Source: Ostreococcus lucimarinus (Eukaryota). From it: a DNA stretch of 64,000 bases. How positions within the stretch are numbered: the first letter of the stretch is position 1; each line of letters begins with the position of its first letter. Shown here one piece after another: positions 1,363 through 58,094 of this stretch. The stretch lies in NCBI GenBank assembly GCA_000092065.1, contig CP000598.1; one strand, given 5' to 3'. A program made the translations under genes and the position numbers. The notes beneath the pieces are model-generated. The model had not been told where the DNA came from. It ran no database searches and was given only the letters and a program-made list of their open reading frames with translations.

Positions 1363-1838
1363 CCTCCGTCCGCGGTCGTTCGCGTCGACATAGTTCAAGT
1401 GGTACCCTTGGACGACGGGCCCACCCGTGCGCACCCACGGGTGGGTGAAGTGCGTTTCCGTGGCGCGCCGTCGCCGTTCGGTCCTTCGCGGGCGACCGTA
1501 GCGCAACCGGGCGATCTCCGTGCGGGCGGCGCGACGCGACGCCGGTGCACGCATCGCAAGGGGCACACGCCGGGGGCACGGCGCCATTCGCGGCGAACGG
1601 TACGCCACCACACACGTTCGCAGCGGCGGACGGCATGCGTGGGCGGGTTGGAGGCAACGTTGTATTGAAAATTGCGTACAGCACTGTTGGGCAGACCGGC
1701 TCGTTGAAGCAGCATACGGATCTACGAGCGAAAGCATTTTCTCCGTCGAATATCATAGGGAAACAGCATGATAGATCAGTTGCACGGTCGAATCACAGTG
1801 CTCGAGCATCCTTCAGTTATCATACGTTGAAGGTGAAA

Positions 1839-4800
1839 ATGATTTTAACACTCGTATCCATCGCTATATCCATGGGAAATACACTTGCGAGTGGTAGCAT
1901 AGCGCTCACCGACGCAACGTTTTCTACTGCGATCGCTAGTTGCCTCGAGGAGGCAGCGTCGGATGGCCTGTGTACTTCTTACGGCTTTGCAAGTGGGTTC
2001 GGAGCGATGCCTGATTGGGACACGGGCAATGTCACGAACATGGGTAGTGCATTTTCGTCTAAATACTACTTCAATGCATCCATCGGGAACTGGAACACGT
2101 CGCGAGTGACGTATATGGGTTCCATGTTTCAGTCTGCGTATTCGTTTAATCAGGACATCGGGAACTGGAACACGTCGCAGGTGACGAACATGTATTCCAT
2201 GTTTCAGTCTGCGAATTCGTTTAATCAGGACATCGGGAACTGGAACACGGCGCGAGTGACGTATATGGGTTCCATGTTTCAGTATGCATCTTCGTTTGAT
2301 CAGGACATCGGGGGCTGGAACACGTCGCAGGTGACGAACATGTATTCCATGTTTCAGTATGCGTCTTCGTTTGATCAGGATATCGGGAACTGGAACACGT
2401 CGCGAGTGACGTATATGTATTCCATGTTTCAGGGCGCATCTGCGTTTGATCAGGACATCGGGGGCTGGAACACGTCGCGAGTGACCAATATGGGTTCCAT
2501 GTTTCAGTATGCATCTTCGTTTGATCAGGACATCACAAACTGGAACACGTCGCGAGTGACCAATATGGGTTCCATGTTTCAGTATGCATCTTCGTTTGAT
2601 CAGGACATCACAAACTGGAACACGGCGCGAGTAACGTACATGACCAACATTTTCCAAAACGCGACGGCGTTTCAGGCGAAATATACATGTTCGACCGTTC
2701 AATCTGGACCCATCGCATCGTGTTCGCAGTGCGTTGCAAACTGTGCCGCTTGTAGTAACACTGCGTCGGGTGTTTGTAGTGTTTGCATGACTGGGTACAC
2801 ATTAGACGGAGGAATGTGTGCGGCACCCGCTGCGGCGCTCACCGACGCAACGTTTTCTACTGCGATCGCTAGTTGCCTCGAGGAGGCAGCGTCGGATGGC
2901 CTGTGTACTTCTTACGGCTTTGCAAGTGGGTTCGGAGCGATGCCTGATTGGGACACGGGCAATGTCACGAACATGGGTAGTGCATTTTCGTCTAAATACT
3001 ACTTCAATGCATCCATCGGGAACTGGAACACGTCGCGAGTGACGTATATGGGTTCCATGTTTCAGTCTGCGTATTCGTTTAATCAGGACATCGGGAACTG
3101 GAACACGTCGCAGGTGACGAACATGTATTCCATGTTTCAGTCTGCGAATTCGTTTAATCAGGACATCGGGAACTGGAACACGGCGCGAGTGACGTATATG
3201 GGTTCCATGTTTCAGTATGCATCTTCGTTTGATCAGGACATCGGGGGCTGGAACACGTCGCAGGTGACGAACATGTATTCCATGTTTCAGTATGCGTCTT
3301 CGTTTGATCAGGATATCGGGAACTGGAACACGTCGCGAGTGACGTATATGTATTCCATGTTTCAGGGCGCATCTGCGTTTGATCAGGACATCGGGGGCTG
3401 GAACACGTCGCGAGTGACCAATATGGGTTCCATGTTTCAGTATGCATCTTCGTTTGATCAGGACATCACAAACTGGAACACGTCGCGAGTGACCAATATG
3501 GGTTCCATGTTTCAGTATGCATCTTCGTTTGATCAGGACATCACAAACTGGAACACGGCGCGAGTAACGTACATGACCAACATTTTCCAAAACGCGACGG
3601 CGTTTCAGGCGAAATATACATGTTCGACCGTTCAATCTGGACCCATCGCATCGTGTCGATCGGGGTCACCATTTCAGAATTCGACCGAGTTGAAGCTTGC
3701 GGTCGACAGCTGTTTACTCGCGGATCCAACAGGAAATTGTGATTGCAGAAGTTCTCTGGTCGACTGCCGGGCGGCGAGCGGCGATTCAATATCGAAATGG
3801 GATACACGCTTCGTAACGAATATGAGCTCCTTGTTTGCAGGATCAGATCAATTTAACGCAGATTTAGGTGCTTGGAACACAAGTGCCGTTACTTCGATGT
3901 CGCACATGTTTCATGGAGCCGCTGCGTTCAACAAAGACATTAGTGGTACGTATAATGCGAATATCTTCGCGTGGGACGTGAGCGGCGTGACGGACATGAC
4001 TCGAATGTTCGAAGGCGCTAATAGTTTCGCTCAGGACATCAGCTCGTGGAACGTGGTGAACGTCGCGAGCATGGACAGTATGTTTTCGGGCGCAAACGCG
4101 TTCAACGCGCCCATCGGCAGTTGGAACACAGACGGCGTGACAAACATGTTTCAGATGTTCCACTCAGCACATGTGTTCGATCAACCAATCGGAAGCTGGA
4201 ACACGGAACGGGTGACGAGCATGCAGTGCATGTTCATGTATGCGCGTGAATTCAATCAGGATATCAGCTCCTGGAACACGGTCAACGTGGTAAATATGTG
4301 GGATATGTTTAATAGTGCGGATGCGTTCAACCAGAACATTGGGTTATGGAACACAGAGGAGGTGACGGATATGAGATACATGTTCTATAACGCGGGTGCG
4401 TTCAACCAGCCCATAGGGTCGTGGAACACCGCCAATGTCACGACCATGCGATCTATGTTTCAGGGCGCATCTGCGTTTAATCAGGACATCGGAAACTGGA
4501 ACACGACTTCTGTCACGGACATGTACAGCATGTTTGGTAGCGCGACGGCGTTCAATCAGAACATCACGGGATGGCACACGCCGAATACTGGTATTACTTG
4601 CGATTCATCGCAAACGGCGTGTGGTGATACAGGGTGTTTTGACATCGGTAATTGTGCTGCTGCGATGTTTTCCGGTGCGACAGCTTGGTTAGCGAGGTAT
4701 GCTCGCATGGATGGGAATGCGTCGAGCACCGATGGACCTCCGTCTCAGTGGGTCGGCCCGACACCATTTTTGAGTCGAGACGCTTTAGTCGCGGCGGTTG

Positions 4801-7800
4801 ATAATTGCTTGACCGAGGACGAGACGGGAAGTTGCGATTGCTCTGATTACGACGTCGATTGTGGCGCCGCCGTAAAGCTGCCGATCACGGAATGGGACGT
4901 GAGCCTCATCGTGGATATGAACGAGCTATTTAAGGCTCGAGCAGCTTTCAATCAACCGGTTGGTGTTTGGAACACTAGTAGCGTGACGGATATGAGCGGC
5001 ATGTTTGAGAGCGCATCCGCGTTTAACCAGCCCGTTGGTAACTGGAACACGGGTAGTGTGACGGACATGAGCGGCATGTTTGAGAGCGCATCCGCGTTTA
5101 ACCAGCCCATTGGTAACTGGGCCACGGGCAGTGTGGCGGATATGAGCGGGATGTTTGAGAGCGCATCTGAATTCAATCAGAATATTAGTAGCTGGTCAGT
5201 CGCTTCTGTGGTGAACATGCAATCCATGTTTTCCTCTGCTTCATCCTTCGAGCAAGACATCACTGGATGGATTTCAACTAGTGTCACGACGGACATGGCG
5301 ACGGACATGTTTCTCTCTGCGACAGCTTGGCTGCGAACATTCGCACGCACAGATGGCGAAGACACCCCCCATGGTCCACCATCCGATTGGGGCGAACCGT
5401 GTGGCAATGGGTGGTACGATGAGAAAGTTCAGGGGGAGAAGGAGGATGACTTTTGTGAGCCAAAAGTGAACGGGATTGAAGTGAAAGGATGTGCAGATGA
5501 CTGCAAAGTAAAAACGAACTGGAAGTGCGACAATGTCGACTTGCTACGCCCCGGTGATGACTTCGACAGCTACAATTGTACGTGCGACAACCCGGTGGGC
5601 ACGTATGCATCACCTAATCTTGATAATGATTGTGCTCGCACAGATTGCGTTTATGTCGAACGGTGTCTCGCTAACGGCCTAGGCTGTGCGCCCGGTGCCG
5701 GTGGAATGTGGGACGTGGGACGTGGAACGTGGGACGCGGTGAACGCATGCGGCAAGTGCTTGAGGGCCGCTGATATTGCCGAGCTCCCACTCAACGAACG
5801 AAGTAGGCACAACAAGGCTGGCTATTACAAGACTGGGCAGACGTGCACGGCTTGTCCTGCGACATCAGCCGCGGGACTTTTCGCTGCGGCTGCGGTTGTC
5901 GTCGTCCTCGCTTTTTGTGGTTTCAAAGCCTCTCAATTGATGGGCGCTCAAGCGACGAACAATTTGAAGAAAATTGTCGAGTCGCTGCAGTTCTTCTCTC
6001 TTTCGCTCAGTATGAGTATCAAGTGGCCTGGGCCCGTACTCAATCTCGGTAAATATTTGGAAGCTTTCACGTTCAGCATTGAGTTTCTACGACCCCAATG
6101 CGTCGCTGCGGGGCTGGATTGGCTCAATATATTTTTGTCCTCGGTGTTTGTCGTTCCCGCTCTCATCTTCATAATCATCGTCGTGAACAATAGACGGGCG
6201 AGGCACCGTTACAAAACAACGGTGCGCGCGATCGACAGTGAACGACACGAGGATGGCGAAACGGTCTACTGGATCGAGAAACCAGGGTTCCTGTGGGGTA
6301 CGCGGAGAGCTTACGAGTCCAAGGGCGGAGATAAGATTGTTCGTGAGTTGCAGCGCCAGTATCGGTTTCGAGCCGCGCTTCGATCTTTCGGCGTACTGTC
6401 ACTGACCATCCTGTACCTTCCCATCGTGCGTATGTGCCTTCAGTCATACGATTGCATAAAGATAGACGGCGTGGATGGGCTTCGATTGGAGCATGACATA
6501 GATATCCTCTGTGAAAGCGAAGGGCACGTGATCATCCAGGCCGCCGCCGCGGTGATGTTGGCCATTGTCGGTATCGGCATGCCAATTTACGTCGTTATGC
6601 AAGTTCGTAAGATCCGTTTGAGTGGTAAACTGGATGATCCGCAGACTATCGACTCGTATGGTCCGTTCTACGACGTCTACCGGCGCGAGGAGCTCACACA
6701 TGATCACAAATTGGAGATTGCGAGGATTCGACAAACCGCGGTCGAGTCGTCCTCATTTCGACGAGGCGAAGGCACGAGCGACGAACGTCCTTTCGATGCA
6801 GCAACTGATGATATTGCAGAAGAAATCGCAAATGAAGTCAGGGTCGACACGGAAGAAGATTCAAGCGACGTCGATCGTGTTGACGTCGAGGACGATAGTG
6901 GCACTCCACCACCTCAGAAAGTTTCATCCGGTCTCGGTAAGCTCGCTCGGGCGTTAACGATGACGAAGTCTGCTTTAGGCCGGACGACGTCAGCGAAAGC
7001 GCGCGAACGGGCACATCGAATGCACTGGAAGGACAGGTTCGCGCTTCACTACCTGGCCGTTGAACTAGTGCAGAAGAGTTGCGTCATTTTGACGACGTCT
7101 CCGATAGTGGCCGAAACCGCGGTGAGCGGTTGGGCTCTGGTTGTCGTACACTGGTTTACCGGCGCCTTCGTCTACGTGTGTCAGCCTTGGCGCATCATGA
7201 CGCTCGGCTTCGGCAAATACAAGGTGCGAAATTGCTTGAACAAAGTCGAGTCCTTGGCTGGATTTTTGCAGGGCGTGGGACCGTTCTTGGCAATGATCTT
7301 CCCTGTTCAGAGAAACGAGTTCGGTGAGGTGAAGCAAACTGTGACACTCTCAGCCATAACTGTCCTGCTGACCATCATAATCACCGGGCTGCTTTCTATT
7401 CGTATCATTGTTTTCGTCGGCGAACGCGTCGCCGTCAAACGAAAGAAGATGGATATCGACAAGGATCCCGAGAAATGCATGCAAAATGTTCACAAACAAC
7501 TGGTCAAGCTCGCAACCAACAGAGCGATTGTGAGCATGTTTGCTTTCAAGGCAGATTTCGACATTAAGCGCCGTAAAGCACGCGCGAGGCTGGAAGATAC
7601 TCGCCAAGCGATGTTATCGCGCATCGATATCTTGAAGTCACAACAGACCGACGAGGACCATTCCGATAAAATTACCGCGTTGTACGAAGTGGCGAATGAA
7701 ATGGCACACATCGTGAATACGATCGTACCCCAAGCACCGCCAACAGGTCCAAACGCAGAAGGGTGTATCGAATTGCTGGATGAACAACTGGCATCAATTC

Positions 7801-9368
7801 TCAAGGACGTCGACGTCCGAGCGCAGGCGAACGCGTTAGACGCTCCGAATTCTGCGGCGGTACATATCGTGATGAAGGTCCACGCGTTCGATACAATCAT
7901 ATGTCGACTTGACGAACATTTGCTCGAATTCGCGGCGGCAGAACGTGTGAGTGAGCTCGCCGAGCTGGGTCGAAGACACGCTGAATTACGACATACGCGA
8001 CGTTGTGTCGCGATAGGTTTCGGCGACGCAGAGCTTCGAGCTACTTTCGATGCGCTAAGATCGTGCATCGAGGCACTCCGCCATGCCGTTGAGAACGACG
8101 ACTTCGAAGCTGTATTCACAACTTTCAATGGTGGGAAGGAGATCATTGATTCTCACTTACGATGGTGTCGGGATCAATGTGAATTGTTCAAGAGCGCCGA
8201 GGACGAGCACCCCGATTTCCTCGAGGACGAGCCTCCACTGACGACCGAGTTTTTCAAGGCGACAGTCAAGGTGATACAATCCCATGAAAAGCAACTGTCT
8301 AAATTTAAATCGGAATGTATTCGTAACTGGCCCCCGCTTTTCAAGAACTTTGGCCGCGTCAAGTACATACAAGGCTTTGCTGAGCAACTTCAGAATCAAC
8401 TCCATCTCGATCTCAATGAAAGCACGCCGGAGGAGGCCAAGGCTGTTTTCGATCAGGTGTTGGCCTTCACAGATGGCTTCGCGCTTTGGTGCGGCGATTT
8501 AGTGGCACAGGTCGAAGGCTCAGATGTCTTCATCTTGTTTGAGCCAATCGCCCGCGCGATGGTGGAAAGCTTGAAAGCCATCAGAGCAGACGCTGAGTCG
8601 CAAAGTGCACTCGCGAGGCAAGCATTGAGTACGATAGATTATGTGGTGACGCAACGGGCGTTGGCCGCAACGACGCGGTCGGGCTTGCAGACAGCACTCG
8701 CGGATGGTACGTCTGCGCTTGAAGACCAGCTCGCCGCAGAAATTGCAGACATGGACGCTGCGAAGATTTCTCGAGAGACTACTTTCGAGACCGAAAAGAT
8801 GCGCACCGAGGAAGCTTTGAATACATTAGAGCAAGAGTTGGACGGTAGGCGAGCGGTTTTAGAGGACGACATTCGATCGCAACAGGACACTATCGCGCGG
8901 CTACAAAACTTGAAACGGGAAGAGGCCGCGGCATCGAGCTCTATAAACCCGTTGAAATGGGAGCGTTTCAGTCGAAGCACTGAGCTCGCCGAAGCTGTAA
9001 GTGCACTCCGTATGAGCAAACAAAACTTGAAGAATGAAGAGCTTGCAAATGAGAAGGCCCGCGGGGATGCGCGTAAGGCGGTTCATTCGTTGGAACGGGG
9101 CCTGAAAAAGGACCTGGTCGAATGTGACGTCCGAGCAAAGAAAATCCGAGACGATGTGGCAAAGGAGCTGAAGAAACAAACTATGGATGCTCAGAGGAAG
9201 ACACCCGAAGATGCTAAAGCCCATAAGGCTAGTCTGGCTTCCAGGCGCGCGGTGTTCCAGCAACAACGCGCCGCCGCTAAACTCATCGCGAGCGAAAGTA
9301 GAGAAGCTACGCGAATTCAAGCACAGCTTGCATACTACATGCGAAATTTAAAGGCGCGCGAATCGTGA
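1839..9368 (+). CDS. Giant surface-type protein: DUF285 (PF03382, BspA-type LRR) repeat ectodomain, Cys-rich stalk, multi-pass membrane region, long coiled-coil tail
   Basis: Uninterrupted ORF (track 1545..9368, non-ATG start). The in-frame ATG at 1839 precedes the signal-like peptide [19 protein letters not shown]. About 35 repeats of F..A..FNQDI..WNT..VT.M..MF fall in four blocks, each with a Cys cap (..AVDSCL..G.C..). Roughly six hydrophobic helices lie between 5860 and 7440, followed by an acidic linker and a heptad-rich tail. Confidence 0.85.
1902..3655 (+). repeat. Internal tandem duplication, period 933 bp (1902-2722 = 2835-3655)
   Basis: The two 821-bp arms read identically base for base wherever I compared them. 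Antisense ORFs at 1845..2702 and 2802..3635 have identical peptides. The arms are separated by a 112-bp Cys-rich linker ([25 protein letters not shown]). Confidence 0.9.
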
Positions 9369-9499: not shown

Positions 9500-9703
9500 G
9501 GCTCACAAATCAGGCAAGAGAAGACAGGTGCACGTGCAAACTCTCAGCGGAACGAGTTGGTCGTCTCGAAGATCTCGGTGTTTGGTGAGACCAAGCCGAC
9601 GCACAGGAGGAGCACTTCGATGCCTGGAGGTACAGAAGATGTAACTCATCTTAAGCGTACGACTATTCAGACCTTGGGGGTTCCGCTTAAGATTTCTTCG
9701 GAA
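9500..9703. repeat. Diverged 3'-flank module, paralogous to 21905-22140
   Basis: Alignable by eye at roughly three quarters identity: gacaggtgc..gcaaa..ggaagagcacttcg.tgcctg.gggtacagaagatgta..aagaccttgggg.ttc..gcttaagatttc. Confidence 0.7.
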
Positions 9704-10190
9704 TGGAATCTCTGAACGCAAGGCGTGGATGTACATTAAACCATGAACGAGGCGGGCCACGGTTCGATTTTTTGGATTACAAGTGTAGGTCTACTTTTAC
9801 GTTTCGTGGACTCTGCTTGAGTCGGCCGATGTCACCATGTCAGTCAGGTGCTTCGAGTGCACTAGAGACGTGACCGCCCATACACAGGACGTCGAGCTCG
9901 GCGTGCCTGATTTCACGACTCGGCGACCATGGTTTGAAACCGAAATGACCATCGGCTTCAGGCCCAGGCGCGGCCGCAATGCTACTTTAAACTTAATATT
10001 TTTTTTTTGAAAAAAGAGTAGTAAGAGTAATAAAAATAAACTTTTTTTTGTTTGAGTTGGGGCACCCCAACATGATAAAACCGCACATCGCGGCGAGCCG
10101 CGCGACGACGATCACTTCGGTCACATTTCCAGTCAGTGATTCTCGTCGTGTGATTCATCGTGTTTGACGTCGACGTTGATGTACCACATG
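9704..10190. mobile_element. 487-bp insertion flanked by 16-bp direct repeats (small non-autonomous element, type unknown)
   Basis: taagatttcttcggaa (9688-9703) and taagatctcttcagaa (10191-10206) flank it. The paralogous site at 22125-22140 has one copy and no insert. The first ~315 bp recur at 16396-16703. There is an internal T-run/A-run at 10008-10016. Confidence 0.6.
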
Positions 10191-10227
10191 TAAGATCTCT
10201 TCAGAACCAATCGTGTGAGTGAAGTGT

Positions 10228-10725
10228 TCAGGCCAAGTCGCGTAACTCATCTAGCGTAAATTGATACTTGTCGAGACTGCGCTTTGAAGGCAGCGTGCCA
10301 CGCGCTCGAGCATTCTTGAGGCACGTCTTACGCAGTATTCTTTTCGCGTGCTGCTTGTAATAATTGAGTTGTCTGTAGTTACCATCGCCGCCGTCACGCT
10401 TCGGCGTATATTGGGCTCTGCTGTAGGCTTGACTCTCGTCCACGTTCTCGTGACACGCGTGTTTCTGGCTGCGTCCAGCAGCTCGGGAGTTGAATAAGCC
10501 GTCGCGCTTCTCTCTCATGTATGCACTTTTACGTTGATGGAGCTCTCCAGCTGGAATGTCCTTTTCGAGAACTCTCACGTCCGCGTCGCCAAACGTGAAG
10601 ATTGGATGTCGTGCGTATTTATGCGAGGCAAGGCGCGCTCTGAGCGAACCTGTCGTCGATCCGATGTACGTTTTGTCACATTTCGCATTATCGCTAAACA
10701 TTTCGTACACGCACCCCGTAGGCAT
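10228..10725 (-). CDS. GIY-YIG family nuclease-like protein (copy 1)
   Basis: ATG verified. N-terminus MPTGCVYEMFSDNAKCDKTYIGSTTGSLRARLASHK fits the GIY-(10-11 aa)-YIG motif plus the conserved Arg, with downstream E and N residues (AYMREK, FNSR). Basic C-terminal tail. Confidence 0.6.
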   Translation of the reverse strand: MPTGCVYEMFSDNAKCDKTYIGSTTGSLRARLASHKYARHPIFTFGDADVRVLEKDIPAGELHQRKSAYMREKRDGLFNSRAAGRSQKHACHENVDESQAYSRAQYTPKRDGGDGNYRQLNYYKQHAKRILRKTCLKNARARGTLPSKRSLDKYQFTLDELRDLA

Positions 10726-10894
10726 TTGTCCTGGTTACCTATCCATCCCTAAGAAAATATTGTTGCCTCCTCCTGCGGTTTGCAGTCACATTCGAGAGAC
10801 CATAGGTACTCGTGTCGCTGCGTGGGGTGCAAGGTCCGGGGTGTAGATATCGAACCGCCTGATTTCACACCTGGACGTTCGTGATCCGACGAGA

Positions 10895-11085
10895 CCTGAC
10901 GAAATGACGAACTTGTTTTGTCGTCCCCAAATTCGTCAGCCCGTCGTTCGGTCACACTTTGTGTGTACCAATGATGAAAATGACGAAATGTTAAAATATT
11001 TTAATGTTTATTTTTATTTTAGATCTATGACAAGCAACAGTGTAGACCTTTATGAAAACAGTTCGTCATTCGTCATTTCGTCAGG
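10895..11085. repeat. Inverted repeat around an AT-rich spacer (also at 22837-23027)
   Basis: cctgacgaaatgacgaac (10895-10912) is the reverse complement of gttcgtcat(tcgtcat)ttcgtcagg (11061-11085). The arms resemble an internal piece of the 9704-10020 element (cctgatttcac, caaaccatggtc). Confidence 0.7.
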
Positions 11086-11150
11086 ATCCAAACCATGGTC
11101 TTTTCGGTGTCTTGTTGAGTCTTCATATTGCAAATGTACGAATCACAAAA

Positions 11151-11669
11151 TTAGTATGAACACCAGACGACCGCCGGCGCGAGCTCCGTCTCCCCCGTGT
11201 ACCCATTGTTCTTCAGCCACTCGAAGCACCCGTCGCGGTCAATTTCCCAATAGACGCCCTTCTCGTCCCTACCTTGCCTCAGGTGGTCCTCTTCCATTGG
11301 GATCCTGTGGCCCTTTTCCTTCTTGAAGAAGTCCTTGAGCTTATTGCCGACCTTCGTCGCGCTATCTTGTCCACGCGCAGCCGCTGGCAACCACGTCTGG
11401 TATTCGATGAAGATGTCACTGTTGCGGATTTTATTTCCAACCCACTTCTCAGGGAATTCAACAGTGACGCAATGCTCAAACCATCGAGTGAACTTGGGCA
11501 TGCAGCCACGCTTCATTTCCGAATACGCGTCGGTCGTAGGTCTCGTGCGCTCCACATGATAACCGGTACGGAGAAGTTTATATTTATTAATTAAAGACTC
11601 GCGCGTGTTGGCGCTAAATGATTTTATTGCTGCCGAGAGACTCAAGTTTGGCCGTCGTTTGAGTCGCAT
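11151..11669 (-). CDS. Hypothetical protein (copy 1); weak resemblance to the C-terminal region of D5/P4-type primase-helicases
   Basis: The track ORF 11151..11726 starts at TTG; the first ATG is at 11669 (MRLKRRPNLSL..). The segment FTRWFEHCV..IFIEYQTWL..KVGNKLKDFFKK..GVYWEIDRDGCFEWLKNNGY is the basis for the tentative similarity. Function is unverified. Confidence 0.45.
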   Translation of the reverse strand: MRLKRRPNLSLSAAIKSFSANTRESLINKYKLLRTGYHVERTRPTTDAYSEMKRGCMPKFTRWFEHCVTVEFPEKWVGNKIRNSDIFIEYQTWLPAAARGQDSATKVGNKLKDFFKKEKGHRIPMEEDHLRQGRDEKGVYWEIDRDGCFEWLKNNGYTGETELAPAVVWCSY

Positions 11670-11746
11670 CGATGGGTCGCGCCCGCCGATATAACGCCGG
11701 CGTTTCGGACACGATCTTGAAAACAAGCACTGGTTGACTTGATTGA

Positions 11747-14272
11747 TTAGGAAACCTTATCCGTGCCTTTTACGCTGAGCCCGGTCATGGACGGCTTCGT
11801 CGGCATGGTGAACGCGGTGTAGTCCGCCGCCGTGGGCACCGTGATGCTCGTGTCGTACGACATCCCGGAGCACGCCGACGCATCGGCGGGAGCAAGCATT
11901 TCGACACCACTTTCGAGTTTCAAGACGTACCGGTCGCCAGTCGATGGTTGTTTGAACGTGGTGCCATCGGGGATCAGGACATCCGGACGGCGATGGTAAC
12001 CATTGTTGTCGTCGCACTCCTCGTTGCCATACTGGTCGACCTCGGGCGCCGCGCGCGAACCAGTCATCGGATTGAAGCAAATGAACGGCGCGTCGCCCAA
12101 CCAACCGCCTTCGTAACGCACGTTGAGATTCACCCCGGAGTAGTCGGTACCGGATGGAGAGCGCAGCAACACGGCGTCCGTGGGTATCTTGCCTTGAAGC
12201 TGGAGAGGCGCATCCATGAACTTCTTTGACGCGGAGTCCGAAGGATCTTCGAGCCACGCCATGCCCTCCCAATTGCTTGAGCTCCACTCGTAGTGCACAT
12301 CCAATTTGTTGGGTTCCTCGCAAACGTCGGTAGTGGCGGTGCAACTCAAAGTGTCGAGGTTCGCAGGTGTAGCTTCGAAGAGAACCATATGAACTTCTCC
12401 CGAGTCAAAGAATGAGTTGGTTGGGTCCATTACGACTTCAGCGCCGAGGGTGCCGGAAACGTCTTCCTTCAACGAGCCGGTATCTTTGTCGAAGACGTAC
12501 TTTTTATAAGTGCTTCGAGCGTCGTTGTATCCGTTCGGCGAGCCGTAGAACTGGCTGTCGTGACTGCTCGCACTCGATAGCTTCGTCTGGTCGATACACC
12601 GCTCGCCGCACGTGAGTGCGAGGTGGCTGCTGAGCGACCCAGGGGGGACGGTTTGCGCGTCAGACACTTTGAAGTGCGTCAGGTTAAGCAAACTCGCAGA
12701 GCCTCGGCCGAAGATGCTTCCCCAGCAGCGTATGATTTGGTTGTCAATGTCAGCCATCGTGAGCGCACGCGGAGTCGTGATTGAGTTCGTGTTCAGCGAT
12801 CCACCGTTCCAAGTTCGCTTCGACGACAACACGAGTGCGTTCGCGTCGGAGTCATACCTGAACTTGACCTCAACTTCTGCAGCGTTAGTGTCATCCCAGA
12901 ACCAGCCTGTGATCGTCGCCCCTTGGTAGTCGCTTGCGCTTCGCACCGTCGCCGTGAACTTGTACAACACCCCGCGTGAGACTTTGAGCCTCTTGTTCAC
13001 GTTCAGTATCGGATCATCCCAATCGACAATTTCCTCTACTACGTTCCCGTCGGTGAACGCGGTTTGAGCGATAGTCTTCTCGGCGGTACTGAGCGCGGTG
13101 TCGGAAATGTAGTCGTAATCGGAAATGTAGAGATTGCCCGGATAGTGCAGATCAGCATTATACGTCTTGCCGTCGCTGCCTGTAGCCTGAAGATGCACGT
13201 AGCTTTGAAGGTTCACCTTCGCCCCGTTGCTGTCGTACGCGCCGTAGCGCTCACCGAAGAACGATCTGTTCTCGAGTTCATCGCAGAATGACTGCCCGTA
13301 CGCCTTCGTCTTGACGAGCGTAGCGGTAGTCACCAATTGACCCGCTTGTGTCGAACCATTATCAAAGTCGATGGTCTGGAAAGAGGCCTTCGTGATGTCG
13401 TTTTCTGCGCGCGATTTAGCACCCGCGGTGAATGAATTGCTGCCTCGTGTCACCTCTTCCCACCACGTGACCCCGGTCGCCGTGCAATCCGAATCCGCGT
13501 CGGTGGTTTCGCACTCGCGACGAACCACACCTTTGATGCGTTGGGACGCGGTCGAGCCAGTCGGCGATTGGTACGTAAAGGTAAAGTTTTTCACCAAGAT
13601 TTTGTCAGACTTGATGGCGACGTCATCGCGCTTGACGATCATTTCCGTGTCGATGTTCGGCATTTCTGGGGTATCGCTGAGGGCTACCCAGACGTTCGTC
13701 TTGAAATCACGGGTATCGCTCGCGTCGTCGATGTCTGGGCCCGTGGCGTTGACGACCCAACGGTACGTAACCTTACCCTTGATTCGGTCGCCGTCGCTGT
13801 TGTCACAGTGGAAAGGATCGATCTCAGCGATGTATGGGCCAGTGTTCAGGTTCGCCGTCCAGTTCACCGAGGCGACGTAGCAAAGAACCATGTTTGGTAT
13901 CTGGAAAATTTCGGTACTTACAGCGTCGACGAACGTCTCCGCCGGCGGCGCCGTGGCGTAGTCGGACGTCGAAGAGAACGAAGACACTTCGAGAGGCGTC
14001 ACCTCGACGAGCGAACGACCATCGATTCGAGACGAACCAGAAGACGTCGTCGAAACACCCTCTGACGGGATCATGGTGACTTTACGCGGCGTCAACGCCG
14101 CCTTGAGCGCGTTCGTCTTCGCCGCGCCCGACAGCCCGCTGACGGTGGTCGGGGTCGGGGCCGGGGCCGGGGTCGCGTCGTCATCCCTGAGCCCGATGCC
14201 GAGGCCGGTGCCAAGGGCGACCACCACGGCGGCGACACCAACGATCGCGATCGCAACGCCACGTCTCACCAT
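11747..14272 (-). CDS. 841-aa membrane-anchored protein with a large Cys-containing extracellular-type domain, unknown family (copy 1)
   Basis: ATG verified. N-terminal anchor MVRRGVAIAIVGVAAVVVALGTGLGIGL, a PAPAPTPTT linker, then a long uninterrupted ORF with a non-repetitive, protein-like sequence. Confidence 0.75.
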   Translation of the reverse strand: MVRRGVAIAIVGVAAVVVALGTGLGIGLRDDDATPAPAPTPTTVSGLSGAAKTNALKAALTPRKVTMIPSEGVSTTSSGSSRIDGRSLVEVTPLEVSSFSSTSDYATAPPAETFVDAVSTEIFQIPNMVLCYVASVNWTANLNTGPYIAEIDPFHCDNSDGDRIKGKVTYRWVVNATGPDIDDASDTRDFKTNVWVALSDTPEMPNIDTEMIVKRDDVAIKSDKILVKNFTFTYQSPTGSTASQRIKGVVRRECETTDADSDCTATGVTWWEEVTRGSNSFTAGAKSRAENDITKASFQTIDFDNGSTQAGQLVTTATLVKTKAYGQSFCDELENRSFFGERYGAYDSNGAKVNLQSYVHLQATGSDGKTYNADLHYPGNLYISDYDYISDTALSTAEKTIAQTAFTDGNVVEEIVDWDDPILNVNKRLKVSRGVLYKFTATVRSASDYQGATITGWFWDDTNAAEVEVKFRYDSDANALVLSSKRTWNGGSLNTNSITTPRALTMADIDNQIIRCWGSIFGRGSASLLNLTHFKVSDAQTVPPGSLSSHLALTCGERCIDQTKLSSASSHDSQFYGSPNGYNDARSTYKKYVFDKDTGSLKEDVSGTLGAEVVMDPTNSFFDSGEVHMVLFEATPANLDTLSCTATTDVCEEPNKLDVHYEWSSSNWEGMAWLEDPSDSASKKFMDAPLQLQGKIPTDAVLLRSPSGTDYSGVNLNVRYEGGWLGDAPFICFNPMTGSRAAPEVDQYGNEECDDNNGYHRRPDVLIPDGTTFKQPSTGDRYVLKLESGVEMLAPADASACSGMSYDTSITVPTAADYTAFTMPTKPSMTGLSVKGTDKVS

Positions 14273-14409
14273 CGTCGCGCGTTGAAATGCGGCGACGACA
14301 AGTGGCGACGGTGACGCGATCTGCCCGCACGCAATTCAATTCCTTCGGGTCACCTTATCTTTTGGAGCCCCCGGAAACGCGACTGTTTACCAATACGATG
14401 GTTCCCGGG

Positions 14410-14685
14410 TATTGATTACTGGGCCTGTTGGCGCCCCGCGGGTGTGTGTGTGCCAGCCCGTAGGGTTTAAGGTTTAGGATCCGAAATATGGAGCCTCGCT
14501 ATTAAGCCGGGGATCCTCCGCGGGCACGCGCCCCCGCGGGCGTGTGTGTTTTCGCGGTCGGTCGGACGGGAAGCCTGTTGGCGCCCCACGGGTTTGTGTG
14601 TCGGTCCTTAGCGTTTGGGGTTTAGTATCGGACATACGGAGCCTCACTATTTAGCGGTATGACCACATATATTAATTGATTTATA
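14410..14685. repeat. Degenerate telomere-like / subtelomere-like block (1.5 units); related block at 17466-17640
   Basis: Shared unit: ggggatcctccgc..ccgcgggcgtgtg..ttcgcggtcggtcggacg..ccgttggcgccccgcgggtttgtgtg..agggtttag.ggttaggatcggacatatggagcctcactatttagc. Confidence 0.8.
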
Positions 14686-14759
14686 CCATTCATCCCGCGC
14701 ATAAAATCGGGTAGATTACTGTACAGTAATCTACCCGACTTTATGCGCGGGATGAATGG
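14686..14759. repeat. 74-bp near-perfect palindrome (36 of 37 arm positions pair)
   Basis: ccattcatcccgcgcataaaatcgggtagattactgta|tacagtaatctacccgactttatgcgcgggatgaatgg; centre ctgtacag. Weaker arm similarity extends about 25 bp on each side. Confidence 0.9.
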
Positions 14760-14936
14760 CATAAATCCCATAGTATATGGGGACCGGACCGGCGGGACGT
14801 GTGATTTTTTACCGTAGGGGTCATGATTGGTCGTTCGGGGGTACTCGTATGAAATAATGAAACACCATACTTTTATTTACATTTTGGTTTATTAAAAAAA
14901 CCCGTACGTGCATTTACTACAGAATTGACCACTTTT

Positions 14937-16245: not shown

Positions 16246-16395
16246 GCGCTCTTCGAGTTCGTCGATGCGGCGTTGTTTAGCGTCGTTCGCGCTCTCTACA
16301 TCGGCGCGACATAGAATAACGATAATCTATATCTGCTATATCTGCTTAATATTCTGCTTAAGATTTCGGCACCCTCGCTTAAGATCTCTTCAGAA

Positions 16396-16703
16396 TGGAA
16401 TCTCTGAATGCAAGGCGTGGATGTACATTAAACCATGAACGGACCACGGTTCGATTTTTTTTATTACAAGTGTAGGTCTACTTTTACGTTTGGTGGACTC
16501 CGCTTGAGTCGGCCGATGTCACCGTGTCAGGTGTTCAGAGTGCACTAGAGACGTGACCGCCGATACACAGGGCGTCGAGCTCGGCGTGCCTGATTTCACG
16601 ACTCGGCGACCATGATTTGAAACCGAAATGACCATCGGCTTCAGGCCCAGGCGCGGCCGCAATGCTACTTTAAACTTAATATTTTTTTTTTGAAAAAAGA
16701 GTA
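16396..16703. mobile_element. Second copy of the 9704-10020 element core
   Basis: It starts immediately after cttaagatctcttcagaa (16378-16395), the same sequence as the flanking repeat at 9688-9703. It is collinear up to the T-run/A-run gaaaaaagagta, and no matching right-hand repeat is seen. Confidence 0.6.
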
Positions 16704-16756
16704 CTATAGTACTTTTGGTGTTTAAACGTGTTCGTGATATGATTGATAGTCCGTGA

Positions 16757-17465: not shown

Positions 17466-17640
17466 GTGAGGCCCGGAGATCCGGGGATCCTCCGCAGCCC
17501 CGCGGGCGTGTGCCTGGCGTGTGCCCTTCGCGGTCGGTCGGACGAGGGGCCCGTTGGCGCCCCGCGGGTTTGTGTGCCAGCCCCAGGGTTTAGGGGTTAG
17601 GATCGGACATATGGAACCTCACTAATTAGCCGCATGACCT
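17466..17640. repeat. Degenerate telomere-like block, homologous to 14515-14685
   Basis: See 14410-14685. Contains cagccccagggtttaggggttaggatcggacatatggaacctcactaattagc. Confidence 0.8.
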
Positions 17641-17838
17641 CATACATTAAGTTATTTATATCTAGTCATCGCGCGAAATGGCGTGGGTAAATTACCGTAC
17701 TAGGGTTTCCGTAAATAAAATACGTACCGAAAATAATGAATTAATTTACACGGGCGTGCCACGACGTCGTCGCACGCGCTCGTGAAAATTTGGTTGACGG
17801 CTTGGATTCGAGATTTTGGGGAGGTAAAATTCGGCCAA

Positions 17839-19946: not shown

Positions 19947-20767
19947 ATGGCAAAGGTGAAGATAATGCTAATATTGTCGATGGTGTTGATACTGCGCATG
20001 CCGAGCGCACTCGCAGGCGCACTCACACACGCACTCCTCCGTGTGGGTGGTCCACGTGTAAGGCAAGCTGTCGAAAAAGGGATGAAACAAGGCATTATGG
20101 ATTCGTTTCCAGGAGGCGTCCAGGACCTCCTCGCATACTTGCACCGCCACAGAGAGGACGAAATCAAACAGGAGTTTGGGTGCATGGCGCTCATGATCAT
20201 GTGCCGGGAAAACACTGAGAACAGACGCATCGCCGGAGAGCAGGGCGCGATCCAGGCCGTCGTGAACGCCTTGAACCGCCACAGAGAGAACAAGGAAGTG
20301 CAGAGGGACGGACACATGGCGCTCGTGATCATGTGCGAGGACAACACCGAGAACAGACGCATCGCCGGAGAGCAGGGCGCGATCCAGGCCGTCGTGGACG
20401 CCTTGAACCGCCACAGAGGGAACAGGGAAGTGCAGAGGGACGGACAACTGGCGCTCGCGATCATGTGCAAGGACAACACTGAGAACAGACGCATCGCCGG
20501 AGAGCAGGGCGCGATCCAGACCGTCGTGGACGCCTTGAACCGCCACAGAGGGAACAGGGAAGTGCAGAGGGACGGACAACTGGCGCTCGCGATCATGTGC
20601 AAGGACAACACTGAGAACAGACGCATCGCCGGAGAGCAGGGCGCGATCCAGACCGTCGTGGACGCCTTGAACCGCCACAGAGGGAACAAGGAAGTCCAGG
20701 CGAACGGGCACATGGCGCTCGCGAGCATGTGCATTAACAACACTGAGAACAGACGCATCGTAGACGC
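19947..20767 (+). CDS. ARM/HEAT-like repeat protein, probable exon 1 (the ORF itself continues to the stop at 20825)
   Basis: ATG at 19947 (MAKVKIMLILSMVLILRMPSALAG). About 4.5 tandem 44-aa units NTENRRIAGEQGAIQAVVDALNRHRGNREVQRDGQLALAIMCKD, which match the armadillo-repeat pattern. Confidence 0.6.
20110..20760 (+). repeat. 132-bp (44-codon) tandem repeat array inside the ARM-like gene
   Basis: Unit starts (aacac.gagaac) are at 20211, 20343, 20475, 20607 and 20739. Units 20343-20474 and 20475-20606 differ at 2 nt. Confidence 0.9.
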
Positions 20768-20817
20768 GTATGGGCAAACAGTTAGTTATTCTCCACAGCC
20801 TCCATTCGCGCGACCAG
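20768..20817 (+). other. Candidate 50-nt GT-AG intron joining the ARM ORF to the downstream ORF
   Basis: GTATGG donor at 20768 and CAG acceptor at 20815-20817. Removing it restores the frame (..RRIVDA|ALKDSGRSDDAQINALY..). Hypothesis only. Confidence 0.3.
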
Positions 20818-21832
20818 AGCGTTGAAGGACAGCGGGCGCAGTGATGATGCGCAAATAAACGCACTGTACGCGATTGCAAACGAGATGGCGCACGCTGTGA
20901 ACATGATCTCGATTCAAGGTGTCGCTGAAGGCCCGGGCGTTGAAGAACGAGTAAAACACACACAAGATTTCCTACAGCAACTTTTGTCGGACGTCGACAT
21001 CAAACTTGAGATCGAAGAAAAGCAAAACGCCGAGGCTCTGCGTGTGGTATTGCGAGTGCACGCGTATGGTCGTGCCATGAAAATTATCGAGGATCACATG
21101 CTAGAATATGCGCGCGCTGAACAAGTGGAGGAGCTGGCCGTGCTCGGACAAGAATCTGCGGCACTGTTAGAAGAACAAAACCTCCTTTCCATGGGTTTTG
21201 GCGTCAAGGAGCTGAATATGTCGATACTGGCAATCGACGCGGAGCATTTCACTGTGCACCTAGAGAAAGCTACTTCCCTGGACGAAGTCGGCAGTGCTGT
21301 GGCCATTCTCAACGCCGTCAATTCCATTGCAGTCCGTCATCTCGAGTGGAGAGATGCGAGCGTTGCAACTTTTAGCCACCTTGAAACCGAAGAGTCCATT
21401 GGTATTGAAGTCAAAATCAACAGGGACGTACTATATTCTGCTGCGATGCTTCTGAAAGATCACGAATCCCAGCTGAACCAAGAACTGGCGAGGCGCGCGC
21501 GCGAATGGAAGCTTCTGTTTAAGAATTTTGGAAAAGTGAAATTCAACCAGACGCTTGAAGAAATGGTTCAGGTGGAGCTCACCTCGCCTGAAGGCGCGGA
21601 CGCTGATTTAACACGCCGTGCTAAAAAATTTGTGGATTGGTGCGTGGAATCTTCACAGCAGCTGAGCCGAGGGGAGTTTAACCAGCGTCTTCCTGGGATT
21701 ACGGAAACGGCATATATCAGCCTAAAATCCCTCGCACAGAAGTCTGCCAGTTCGCTCGTTAAGATCGCACAAAAAACAGCTGCATCGAGGCGTAGCAAAA
21801 CAAAGACGTCAATATTCGGGTTTGCGCGCTAA
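20818..21832 (+). CDS. Domain paralogous to residues encoded at ~7640-8520 of the giant gene; probable exon 2 of the ARM gene, or a 5'-truncated relic
   Basis: INALYAIANEMAHAVNMI vs [53 protein letters not shown] vs [46 protein letters not shown] vs [11 protein letters not shown]. There is no ATG at its 5' end. Confidence 0.5.
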
Positions 21833-21904: not shown

Positions 21905-22124
21905 CAAATCAGCGTCAGGCGAAGGAAGACAGGTGCGTCTGCAAATTCCAAATTCTCGGCAGAACAAGTTCGTCGACTGGAAGAGCTCGGCCGGTTTGGA
22001 GACAAACCCGCCATATTGGAAGAGCACTTCGCTGCCTGAGGGTACAGAAGATGTAGCTAATCAGAAGCGTGCGACCGTTAAGACCTTGGGGATTCGACTC
22101 GCTTAAGATTTCGGCACCCTCGCT
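21905..22124. repeat. 3'-flank module, copy 2 (see 9500-9703)
   Basis: Collinear with 9500-9703 and carries the uninterrupted target sequence cttaagatttctccagaa at its right end. Confidence 0.7.
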
Positions 22125-22161
22125 TAAGATTTCTCCAGAACGAATCGTGTGAGTGAAGTGG

Positions 22162-22659
22162 TCAAGCCAAGCCACGCAACTCATCTACCGTAAATTGATA
22201 CTTGTCGAGACTGCGCTTCGAAGGCAGCGTGCCGCGCGCTCGAGCATTCTTGAGGCACGTCTTACGCAGTATTCTTTTCGCTTGCTGCTTGTAATAACTG
22301 AGTTGTCTGTAGTTACCATCGCCGCCGACCCGCTTCGGCGTATATTGAGCTCTGCTGTAGGCCGGACTCCCGTCCACGTTCTCGTGGCACGCGTGTTTCT
22401 GGCTGCGTCCAGCAACTCGGGAGTTGAATAAGCCGTCGCGCTTCTCTCTCATGTAGGCACTTTTACGTTGATGGAGCTCTCCAGCTGGAATGTCCTTTTC
22501 GAGAACTCTCACGTCCGCGTCGCCAAACTTGAAGATTGGATGTCGTGCGTATTTATGCGAGGCAAGGCGCGCTCTGAGCGAACCTGTCGTCGATCCGATG
22601 TACGTCTTGTTACATTTCGCATTATCGCTAAACATTTCGTACACGCATCCCGACGGCAT
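22162..22659 (-). CDS. GIY-YIG family nuclease-like protein (copy 2)
   Basis: Same 165-aa ORF as copy 1 with about 9 aa substitutions (for example CDK/CNK, FTF/FKF, DES/DGS). The frame is intact. Confidence 0.6.
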   Translation of the reverse strand: MPSGCVYEMFSDNAKCNKTYIGSTTGSLRARLASHKYARHPIFKFGDADVRVLEKDIPAGELHQRKSAYMREKRDGLFNSRVAGRSQKHACHENVDGSPAYSRAQYTPKRVGGDGNYRQLSYYKQQAKRILRKTCLKNARARGTLPSKRSLDKYQFTVDELRGLA

Positions 22660-23092
22660 TTGTCCTGATTACCTATCCATCCCTAAGAAAATATTGTTGC
22701 CAAAAGTGCTCCTCCTGTGGTTTGCAGTCACATTCGAGAGACCATAGGTACTCGTGTCGCTGCGTGGGGTGCAAGGTCCGGGGTGTAGATATCGAACCGC
22801 CTGATTTCACACCTGGACGTTCGTGATCCGACGAGACCTGACGAAATGACGAACTTGTTTTGTCGTCCCCAAATTCGTCAGCCCGTCGTTCGGTCACACT
22901 TTGTGTGTACCAATGATGAAAATGACGAAATGTTAAAATATTTTAATGTTTATTTTTATTTTAGATCTATGACAAGCAACAGTGTAGACCTTTATGAAAA
23001 CAGTTCGTCATTCGTCATTTCGTCAGGATCCAAACCATGGTCTTTTCGGTGTCTTGTTGAGTCTTCATATTGCAAATGTACGAATCACAAAA

Positions 23093-23611
23093 TTAGTATG
23101 AACACCAGACGACCGCCGGCGCGAGCTCCGTCTCCCCCGTGTACCCATTGTTCTTCAGCCACTCGAAGCACCCGTCGCGGTCAATTTCCCAATAGACGCC
23201 CTTCTCGTCCCTACCTTGCCTCAGGTGGTCCTCTTCCATTGGGATCCTGTGGCCCTTTTCCTTCTTGAAGAAGTCCTTGAGCTTATTGCCGACCTTCGTC
23301 GCGCTATCTTGGCCACGCGCAGCCGCTGGCAACCACGCCTGGTATTCGATGAAGATGTCACTGTTGCGGATTTTATTTCCAACCCACTTCTCAGGGAATT
23401 CAACAGTGACGCAATGCTCAAACCATCGAGTGAACTTGGGCATGCATCCACGCTTCATTTCCGAATACGCGTCGGTCGTAGGTCTCGTGCGCTCCACATG
23501 ATAACCGGTACGGAGAAGTTTATATTTATTAATTAAAGACTCGCGCGTGTTGGCGCTAAATGATTTTATTGCTGCCGAGAGACTCAAGTTTGGCCGTCGT
23601 TTGAGTCGCAT
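23093..23611 (-). CDS. Hypothetical protein (copy 2 of 11151..11669)
   Basis: Identical to copy 1 except for one substitution (EYQTWL to EYQAWL). Confidence 0.45.
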   Translation of the reverse strand: MRLKRRPNLSLSAAIKSFSANTRESLINKYKLLRTGYHVERTRPTTDAYSEMKRGCMPKFTRWFEHCVTVEFPEKWVGNKIRNSDIFIEYQAWLPAAARGQDSATKVGNKLKDFFKKEKGHRIPMEEDHLRQGRDEKGVYWEIDRDGCFEWLKNNGYTGETELAPAVVWCSY

Positions 23612-23688
23612 CGATGGGTCGCGCCCGCCGATATAACGCCGGCGTTTCGGACACGATCTTGAAAACAAGCACTGGTTGACTTGATTGA

Positions 23689-26220: not shown

Positions 26221-27354
26221 CGTCGCGCGTTGAAATGCGGCGACGACAAGTGGCGACGGTGACGCGATCTGCCCGCACGCAATTCAATTCCTTCGGGTCA
26301 CCTTATCTTTTGGAGCCCCGGAGATGCGACTGTTTACCAATACGATGGTTCCCTTTTTTCGGTCGCGAAAGCGCGCGGTCGCCGGGTCAACCAACACCTT
26401 CATCTCCGGGGGGGATCGGAGATTGTTTTTTACGGTCGCGCGCGCGGTCGCCGCGGACGCCCCCGCCCTCGTCGACGCCGCGCTGACTGTCGCGCGCTGA
26501 CTGACACGCGCTGACCGACGCGCGCGCGATCGAACGCCGCGAGTGGGGAAAGGCGAACGCGCGACGTCGTCGCGCGCGCCCCCGCGCGTCCCGGACCGAA
26601 CCGCGCGTCGTCGTCGTCGCCGTCGCCGTCGCGCGCGTACGCTTCGGACCGCGAAAATCGTTTTTCGTCGCGGGGGGACTGCGGTGCGGGTCGTCTCACA
26701 CTTCGGGACGCCGACGATGGTGTCGTCCGGCGACGCCGACGTCGACGACGCGGTCGAACGACGCCATCGGCGCGGTCGCGGTCGCGCCGTTCGCGATCTT
26801 CTGCCGTCGTCCTCGGCGGCGCGCGCGAACACCGTCCCGCCGTTTGAAGCAACCGGTCGAGGCGCGCTCCCGAGGTGGTTTTGCAAGAGCTGTCGGAAAG
26901 CGCTCGACGTGTTTCGTGATTTCGACGGGGAGCTGAAGACGTGTCGACTGTGTTTGCGCGCGCGCAAGAAAGACGCGAAACGCAAACGCGCGCTACGGCG
27001 GGCGGACGCGAAAAGGTCGGGCGACGGCGACGGTAAAAAAGGCGCGGCTTCGTAGAGAAGCCGAACGCAGGGAACGACGACGAGTCGCGGATGCGCGCGA
27101 AACGATCGATCTTTGATTCGACACGCCTTCGGTATAGTAGTGTGTTTTGCTCTGTAGCCTCGCGTGTTGTAACTACCGTTGTACATTTACATCAATGCGT
27201 CGTCGCGTTCGCGGCGATTTTACGTCGTCGTTCGTTCGCGACGCTTCGTTGGACATGGCGCTTCGACACAGAAGAATCCGACGCGCGCACAGTCCGTGGT
27301 GTCGCGCGCACGTCATCGCACACGTCTCATTTCTTATTTCTCCGCTCCAACTCG

Positions 27355-28270: not shown

Positions 28271-28350
28271 CCGCGCCGGCGACGCCTGATCGTCTCGGCG
28301 CGCGATCGTCGCGGCATGGGACGCGTTGGAGGGCGGGGGTCGGGACGCGT

Positions 28351-28428
28351 CGCGGTTTCCCGCGCCGCGCGTCGCGCGTCGTCGGGTGCTGCGGGGACCG
28401 ACCCCGCGGTTTTGTGCGAAATGAAATC
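28351..28428. repeat. Second copy of the 801-875 GC-rich repeat
   Basis: See 801-875. Confidence 0.8.
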
Positions 28429-34700: not shown

Positions 34701-34929
34701 CCGAGCGTATCGAGTGAACGCATACGTCACGCGATCGCGGACTCGCGATGCGTACGTCGACGCGTTCGGCGCCGCGACGTCGTCGACTCGTCGGCGGACG
34801 CGCGCGCGTGTCCTTCGTCGCGCGCTGTGCAGGGCCGGAGTTTTTCACGCCCTCGGCTGCGTCAAACAAAAACCCGTCCTCCGAAACACACCGGCGTCCT
34901 CACACCGCCGCGCTCGCGGCGTCGCCTCG

Positions 34930-57961: not shown

Positions 57962-58094
57962 AAATGCTGGTCGATACAAAGAAGCTGTGGGGGCGATACT
58001 TTGGACATCGTATTCAATATCTTACTTGGCGTACCTCGCCATGTAGAGTCTCACGCCTAGCGTATGTACGCGAAGTGAAAATAGATTTGAGTTT

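Follow-up and report, generated by a model that had tools for sequence, protein, structure and literature searches.

The 64,000-nucleotide (nt) stretch of Ostreococcus lucimarinus CCE9901 analysed here (contig CP000598.1; hereafter the window, to whose positions coordinates refer) contains a block of three open reading frames (ORFs) on the minus strand, at 10228-10725 (165 amino acids, aa), 11151-11726 (191 aa) and 11747-14272 (841 aa). An earlier note, made from the letters alone, had described these ORFs in the same terms and proposed that a GIY-YIG nuclease gene, a small DNA-binding-like ORF and a large anchored protein together form a candidate selfish or virus-derived cassette. We conclude, with a probability of about 0.72, that the block is a composite in which a host membrane-protein gene and a fragment (~1.4-1.9 kb) of a multicopy selfish element have been duplicated together. 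The selfish origin that had been proposed stands for the GIY-YIG and helicase parts, which come from a multicopy element that recurs in many contexts, but a three-gene cassette does not, because the 841-aa gene is unlinked to them elsewhere. The first copy of the block and its tail are made up as follows.

11747-14272, minus strand: gene for the 841-aa protein (ABP00650 / XP_001422333)
11544-11746, minus strand: 203-nt junction formed by 3′-flanking sequence of the 841-aa gene; alignment with every intact copy of the element begins at 11543
11151-11543, minus strand: remnant of a PrimPol and D5-like (DUF5906) superfamily 3 (SF3) helicase gene, its last 132 codons (11549-11154) plus the stop
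10768-11150, minus strand: element spacer from the helicase stop to the GIY-YIG cassette, with an A/T-rich centre; colinear with 9576-9958 of contig L015
10198-10767, minus strand: GIY-YIG cassette of ~570 nt, with the 165-aa ORF at 10228-10725 (ABP00649 / XP_001422332)
10091-10169, no strand assigned: 79-nt insertion private to copy 1 and missing at all other loci in an eight-copy alignment
9684-10090, minus strand: 3′ tail of the element, holding a 340-nt repeat; contiguous with the GIY-YIG cassette in L034 (5164-5559, 94%), L003, L032-L039 and L058

That the block has been copied, as the earlier note had seen, was evident from self-alignment of the window, in which 10191-14406 and 22125-26353 formed a direct repeat with 98.8% identity over 4230 nt. 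The second copy contains the same parts.

22125-26353, minus strand: second block copy, aligned at 98.8% to 10191-14406
22162-22659, minus strand: copy-2 GIY-YIG ORF (ABP00653)
23096-23491, minus strand: copy-2 helicase remnant
23689-26220, minus strand: copy-2 gene for an 843-aa protein (ABP00655)

The differences between the two copies were distributed very unevenly. No substitutions were found in the 841-aa ORF (0/2526) or in the junction (0/203), three of 393 positions differed in the helicase remnant and one of 383 in the spacer, and the GIY-YIG unit alone carried 28 in 570 nt (4.9%), a contrast across segments with p=1.6e-19 in Fisher's exact test. An 8-nt indel between the copies falls exactly at the 5′ edge of this unit (10766/10767). 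With no difference over the 2526 nt of the 841-aa gene, duplication of the 4.2-kb block, or its homogenisation through gene conversion, must be very recent. Past 10191 the homology between the copies is weaker (9510-9696 against 21915-22112, 75%), and an ORF at 20852-21580 has 32-41% protein identity to the C-terminal region of the giant DUF285-repeat protein encoded in the window. The sharp edge at 10191 is an indel of ~400 nt and not the true boundary of the duplication; the weaker homology beyond it points either to an older duplication of greater extent, with later homogenisation of its core, or to a recent copy that landed in a paralogous context.

The middle ORF is 191 aa long when read from a TTG codon, with its first ATG at 11669. 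Its first 59 codons are homologous to nothing and come from the 203-nt junction, which is unrelated to the element; true homology begins at 11549/11543, about 200 nt past the stop of the 841-aa gene. From there the ORF corresponds to residues 602-733 of an intact 733-aa protein encoded on L015, with 97.7% identity over 132 residues (tblastn), and nucleotide homology between the window and L015 runs unbroken from 11543 to 10170 at 97%, through the spacer and into the GIY-YIG gene. The remnant lacks a start codon, a primase domain and Walker motifs, and both the DUF5906 region (residues 442-551) and the N-terminal PrimPol of the 733-aa protein are missing from the window copy. When the three ORFs were scanned against Pfam and PHROG, the one match was a weak one of the middle ORF to a DNA primase C-terminus (phrog_1156, E=0.026), and a homologue that reaches further towards the N-terminus (P0029) contains PF19263 (DUF5906). 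The likeness to D5/P4 primase C-terminal regions reported earlier is therefore explained by descent from a primase-helicase gene, while the proposed small DNA-binding protein gives way to a promoterless 3′ gene fragment, which by its sequence we take to be a primase-helicase pseudogene. The tight spacing that had been pointed out was measured correctly (20 nt from the 841-aa stop to the open frame, 78 nt to the first ATG) but has lost its meaning, as the frame simply runs into the 3′ flank of the 841-aa gene. In copy 2 (22660-23688, against 10726-11746 in copy 1) a gap in the accessions allows a gene model ABP00654 between ABP00653 and ABP00655; ABP00649 and ABP00650 in copy 1 are consecutive, and the helicase remnant may be annotated in one copy only.

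The intact Ostreococcus module consists of the gene for the 733-aa PrimPol/D5-like helicase, 425 nt, the 165-aa GIY-YIG gene and a tail of ~400 nt. A DUF5906 helicase of 711-733 aa was found directly upstream of the GIY-YIG gene in six of eight long Ostreococcus contigs from ENA assemblies; of the other two, L021 has a frameshift that breaks the helicase gene in two, and L022 ends before the gene is complete. The 733-aa protein has an AEP PrimPol N-terminus, a Zn-binding Cys cluster and a D5-like helicase with Walker A and B motifs, and matches DUF5906 at 2e-14. Its relatives carry the Prim-Pol family PF09250, and distant phage relatives with 23-27% identity to the helicase are annotated as P4-specific DNA primase. 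An inverted N-terminal part of the helicase lies ~1.4 kb downstream of the GIY-YIG gene in L003, L037, L038 and L039, always ending at the position equivalent to L015 8395.

Repeats on both sides of the block, another feature of the earlier note, are present at 9684-10023 and at 14421-14782. The first of these, the 340-nt repeat, is the 3′ tail of the element, because it is contiguous with the GIY-YIG cassette at most other loci. Two further pieces of tail were located in the window.

16356-16706, minus strand: solo element tail between the block copies, 94% identical to L034 5232-5579
22048-22140, minus strand: distal tail piece beside copy 2, 82.8% identical to L034 5540-5628

The 340-nt repeat recurs within the solo tail at 16376-16706, and the two are 92.6% identical. 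Copy 2 is without the proximal ~400 nt of the tail, which resumes at 22048-22140, and 16356-16395 matches 22101-22140 at 95%.

The 841-aa gene is a host gene encoding a type-II membrane-anchored all-beta protein, and lies outside the selfish element. The protein has a single N-terminal hydrophobic anchor (residues ~6-28) followed by a large all-beta, Cys-containing domain, and contains six N-glycosylation sequons and 13 Cys residues, of which several do not vary among relatives. It matched no family in a Pfam scan, its predicted model had no capsid-like or known viral fold, and its relatives amounted to only 71 representative clusters among 1.84 billion proteins. Linkage of this gene to the element was confined to the present chromosome-18 block and its copies in other strains, which are 98-99.8% identical. 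The helicase/GIY-YIG pair occurs elsewhere without it, and in L020 an 841-like gene lies 5.5 kb away in the opposite orientation.

Membership of the 165-aa ORF in the GIY-YIG superfamily was borne out through its homologues' PF01541 matches, its motifs and its predicted structure. Alone, the window protein had no match in Pfam or PHROG even at E<=10, but three of its 28 homologues carry PF01541, and in an 11-member homologue alignment eight members matched this family at E<=1 (best 6.5e-7). The homologue in L025 (33% identical) scored 37.4 bits, above the Pfam cut-off of 22.6. The motifs CVY (residues 5-7) and YIG (20-22), together with Arg31 and Asn79, are invariant or near-invariant in the family alignment, with a motif spacing in the 165-aa protein two residues longer than in distant members. 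UniProt names entry A4SA74 a "GIY-YIG domain-containing protein". An AlphaFold model had a mean predicted local distance difference test (pLDDT) score of 76.6, and ~85-91 over residues 1-70; the predicted N-terminal fold (~90 residues) places a three-stranded sheet against helices and is closest to the I-TevI catalytic domain. Residues 100-165 form a basic, helical and strongly conserved domain that is plausibly DNA-binding. CCE9901 has at least three annotated GIY-YIG copies, and 898 sequences fall into the 90%-identity cluster; the third of these CCE9901 copies (P0095) matched no contig when its exact sequence was looked up.

The catalytic centre of this protein is altered. Where 25 of 25 distant family members have Glu, both window copies have Lys66, as does every copy at least 90% identical to them, and hhalign placed Lys66 opposite the metal ligand Glu75 of I-TevI, at low probability. 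Since the invariant metal-binding Glu is Lys here, the 165-aa protein is probably catalytically dead or much weakened.

Several observations suggest that the GIY-YIG gene may move as a discrete unit, as does the divergence step of cassette size between the two window copies. The unit extends over 572 nt, beginning 50 nt before the ATG and ending 37 nt after the stop, and a solo inverted 572-nt copy with unrelated flanks lies ~7 kb from a full module in three assemblies (L016/L018/L019). In L023 the helicase is 81% identical and a GIY-bearing segment of ~960 nt is missing, with the flanks rejoining between 10897 and 9933, so that homology to this GIY-less locus stops within the spacer at 10897. 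Other GIY-YIG copies are truncated at varying points, as decay through deletions could equally produce. Two allele types of the cassette, A and B, occur across different loci: L009 and L010, which represent the orthologous locus in other strains, are type B and copy 1 of CCE9901 is type A. The cassette has exchanged sequence with other element copies independently of its surroundings, as the sharp-edged 4.9% divergence and the spread of A and B alleles over loci attest.

The element has more distant relatives with a larger gene content. A metagenome scan with the GIY-YIG alignment recovered 42 loci, and the neighbour genes of these relatives were mapped by tblastn probes. In relatives with 30-69% identity, nearly every sufficiently long contig encoded the helicase (on either strand), a gene here called X, the GIY-YIG protein and an N6-adenine methylase, in an order seen in L026, L027, most of L043-L068 and L071, on contigs of up to 18.5 kb. 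The methylase is 160-177 aa long, has an NPPF motif and matches PF13651 (1.7e-7) and phrog_799 (2.6e-22); its start abuts or overlaps the GIY-YIG stop, and it adjoins the GIY-YIG gene in distant relatives such as L027 and L045-L060. Gene X encodes 290-450 aa in which the pattern R..K..R..H..Y is invariant, and the C-terminus has the motif 'MKHS..TQ..Y'. Such features typify tyrosine recombinases, and X is a candidate for one. Because the GIY-YIG gene keeps a fixed position among helicase, X and methylase across relatives, its ancestral role would have been that of a core nuclease gene of an integrative, self-replicating element and not of a nomadic homing gene, as the earlier note had it.

The O. 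lucimarinus-type copies have neither X nor methylase, and neither gene nor a methylase remnant was present in the window. Loss of the methylase as the event that forced inactivation of the nuclease was considered, and this idea was weakened by L029 and L044, in which the methylase was not found downstream of the GIY-YIG gene and which both keep the Glu. One Ostreococcus-like contig, L001, holds at 11708-12001 a degraded helicase/GIY-YIG copy followed by a methylase fragment that is 89% identical to that of L054, the GIY-YIG genes being only ~50% identical; this element copy looks like a mosaic.

Taken together, these data would fit the following course. A fragment of the element came to lie directly downstream of the host gene, and the parts of the element that survive here are the last 132 helicase codons, the spacer and an intact GIY-YIG ORF with its tail. 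The lineage of O. lucimarinus has lost the recombinase and the methylase and has Lys in place of the nuclease Glu, probably with nuclease activity abolished or much reduced. The 4.2-kb block would have been copied or homogenised, and the GIY-YIG cassette separately exchanged with other element copies. The fragment here most plausibly has no enzymatic role and serves as one of many scattered homologous stretches at which ectopic recombination and gene conversion can occur. Ectopic recombination among element copies is sufficient for the data and fits the documented instability of the chromosome. The suggestion that the nuclease promoted copying of the adjacent surface-protein gene did not survive: duplication driven by the nuclease is unlikely because the metal ligand is lost and the host gene is identical (0/2526) while the cassette differs (28/570).

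Several points weigh against this composite origin or against parts of it. The GIY-YIG ORF is intact in more than 20 copies, with a ratio of nonsynonymous to synonymous polymorphism (pN/pS) of 0.24-0.35 between allele types, as would be expected if some function were retained and less so under simple decay. The correspondence of Lys66 to Glu75 depends on the low-probability hhalign alignment noted above, and another acidic residue could stand in for the lost Glu. The step in divergence at the cassette edge would be expected both from replacement of the cassette and from a conversion tract ending there, and does not choose between them. No sharply defined 5′ end of the element emerged across loci: sharp termini and target-site duplications were sought across loci and none were found, with 5′ ends that differ by locus. 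A candidate 5′ end at L015:7231 was rejected as specific to that reference. For the wider family, gene X had no Pfam match and no recombinase match in profile comparison with PDB sequences. Near L023, L024, L025, L054 and L060, no capsid or other hallmark gene was detected with Pfam and PHROG, for which models may be lacking.

The most far-reaching of the other readings extends the analysis beyond the window. It holds that the block of helicase, recombinase-like gene, GIY-YIG gene and mini-methylase is an undescribed integrative virus-like family of marine picoeukaryotes, that nuclease and methylase act as a restriction-modification-like pair, and that the decayed Ostreococcus copies, helicase plus dead nuclease fragments, are a main substrate for the ectopic recombination behind the hypervariability of the antiviral outlier chromosome. 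We regard the whole of it as unlikely. L025 has tail-fibre-assembly genes of a kind typical of tailed phages; the ORFs tested beside the block in L054 and L060 gave, methylase aside, no match to a phage family and none to any known family except a helix-hairpin-helix (HHH_8) domain in one ORF each. Scans of a viral contig collection with the GIY-YIG alignment, the helicase (as protein and as alignment) and the 841-aa protein, all limited to short patterns, gave no relatives. The GIY-YIG alignment likewise found none in 185,579 bacterial and archaeal genomes, and tblastn of a GIY-YIG relative found none among GenBank phages.

Domestication of the GIY-YIG protein by the alga, as a non-cutting DNA-binding or regulatory protein with a role on the outlier chromosome (for example in recombination control or antiviral defence), would account for the many intact ORFs that persist despite the lost catalytic Glu, the between-type pN/pS values, the strongly conserved basic C-terminal domain, and the number of copies in CCE9901 and in the 90%-identity cluster. 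A domesticated gene would, however, normally be expected to be single-copy and syntenic, and here the contexts are variable and rearranged, some copies are frameshifted (L001), and pN/pS among the closest copies, within type B, is 0.6-0.9. We consider this explanation improbable.

A similar judgement, that it is quite improbable, applies to an active free-standing homing endonuclease of the T4 seg or I-TevI type that cleaves alleles free of the element or cassette and is copied with its flanks during repair, with duplication of the 841-aa gene as a by-product. The predicted fold, the compact ~570-nt unit with the same edges in the solo copy elsewhere, its presence or absence beside 81%-identical helicases, and ORFs that are intact in most copies with pN/pS below 1 are all as homing would predict, and the divergence of another strain climbs toward the cassette (0.16%, 1.8%, 3.2%, 5.3%) in a manner resembling co-conversion. 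Set against these are the Lys in place of the family-invariant Glu in every copy of the clade, the fixed place between the recombinase-like gene and the methylase across the wider family, and junctions that differ and share no conserved target sequence. In addition, the 841-aa gene ~1 kb from the cassette is identical between copies and the cassette differs, the opposite of what cassette-driven copying would produce.

That all three ORFs are one virus-derived cassette, with the anchored protein as cargo or envelope component acquired from a prasinovirus or other giant virus, is very improbable: the ORFs are co-oriented, closely spaced and copied together, and the trio recurs in several metagenome contigs (L009-L011 and L035), but what these contigs show is this one chromosome block in other strains, only a truncated piece of the helicase is present, and the helicase/GIY-YIG pairs that lack the 841-aa gene, the non-viral model of its protein and the short-pattern scans of viral contigs all point elsewhere, so that the viral origin suggested by the earlier note is not retained.

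The window comes from what we take to be the smallest chromosome of O. lucimarinus CCE9901, a 'small outlier chromosome' of low guanine-plus-cytosine (GC) content. The products of six ORFs have exact matches among public proteins; three, with the 165-aa and 841-aa proteins among them, are GenBank proteins of CCE9901 on a single record of 149,386 bp, and the cluster of a fourth has as its O. lucimarinus entry a shorter, partial protein of that record. Its genes include FkbM methyltransferases, glycosyltransferases, sugar-nucleotide enzymes and the giant DUF285-repeat protein, and its GC content is mostly 45-55%, with high-GC islands (61-68%) at 26001-29000 and 34001-37000 in a remainder of 45-58%. 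The DUF285 protein is encoded by a 2607-aa ORF at 1545-9368, with repeats of 75-nt period, a C-terminal multi-pass membrane and coiled-coil region, and an exact internal duplication (1902-2201 = 2835-3134, 933 nt apart). Dispersed direct repeats lie in the glycosylation-gene part (57820-58187 / 61458-61825, 97.5%; 55862-56076 / 61243-61464, 85%), and a tandem array of five to six 132-nt units (at most 95% identical) occupies 20053-20844 within overlapping ORFs on both strands, between the block copies. No tRNA genes were found in the window.

Upstream of the 841-aa gene, three different contexts meet its 5′ flank within ~10 nt (14397-14509; 26344-26353; L010 6913), and ~130 nt before the start codon two independent junctions are no more than ~10 nt apart. 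Just past these junctions, at 14455-14478, there is a telomere-like short motif (CCTAAACCTTAAACCCTA) in two to three units, which may be due to chance. The repeat at 14421-14782 is made of local and palindromic repeats, including a 120-nt palindrome at 14663-14782, and has a relative at 17481-17700. A repeat of ~100-200 nt that is common to these positions and to L034 126-225 is also found upstream of the helicase in several other assemblies, and may be a small non-autonomous repeat. In the other strain represented by L010 the block is single and has the copy-1 neighbour downstream; upstream of it, L010 1-6912 resembles the far side of copy 2 (26826-28125) and includes a 71%-identical paralogue of the DUF285 tail (5811-7717). 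The arrangement of the small chromosome is thus strain-specific.

A selfish element of O. lucimarinus with PrimPol and a D5-like helicase was described in one sentence by Iyer, Abhiman and Aravind in 2008 (PMC2579912). The window shares descent with that element, but retains only the last 132 codons of its gene and no catalytic domain; the linked GIY-YIG gene, the small-chromosome copies and the wider four-gene block are not part of that account. A full-text literature search for Ostreococcus together with GIY-YIG returned no paper on this element. Unlike homing endonucleases of the I-TevI and T4 seg type, the present gene has Lys for the metal-binding Glu, a fixed position in its wider family and no target site that was found. 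GIY-YIG type II restriction-modification pairs of the R.Eco29kI type and the nuclease/methylase pairs of algal viruses differ in that no methylase stands beside the O. lucimarinus-type copies. The relatives share with virophage and polinton-like gene sets (Yutin, Raoult and Koonin 2013, PMC3671162) the helicase-primase, the GIY-YIG gene and possibly the tyrosine recombinase, and their marine contigs, 14-18 kb long, are likewise densely packed with genes. They differ in that genes for capsid, penton and packaging ATPase were looked for in them and not recognised, and in having no viral-contig matches. The window itself resembles the hypervariable small outlier chromosome of Mamiellales (Yau et al. 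2016, PMC5082852; Blanc-Mathieu et al. 2017, PMC5498103; PMC13390643) in its low GC, in its many genes for glycosyltransferases and methyltransferases, and in repeats, duplications and rearrangements that differ by strain; PMC13390643 makes no mention of a helicase, primase or endonuclease.

The feature is real and for the most part ordinary: a selfish element that the 2008 paper touched on briefly is represented here by a decayed copy within a recent duplication. The result removes the reading of a three-gene viral cassette and puts in its place a documented instance of selfish-element debris embedded in that duplication. The small chromosome has been implicated in virus resistance in related Ostreococcus species. 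No differences over 2.5 kb of host gene, against 4.9% in the cassette, provide a clean natural marker of ectopic exchange, which bears on the fast rearrangement of this chromosome. The most promising lead is the four-gene block of the metagenomes, which points to an uncharacterised integrative element.

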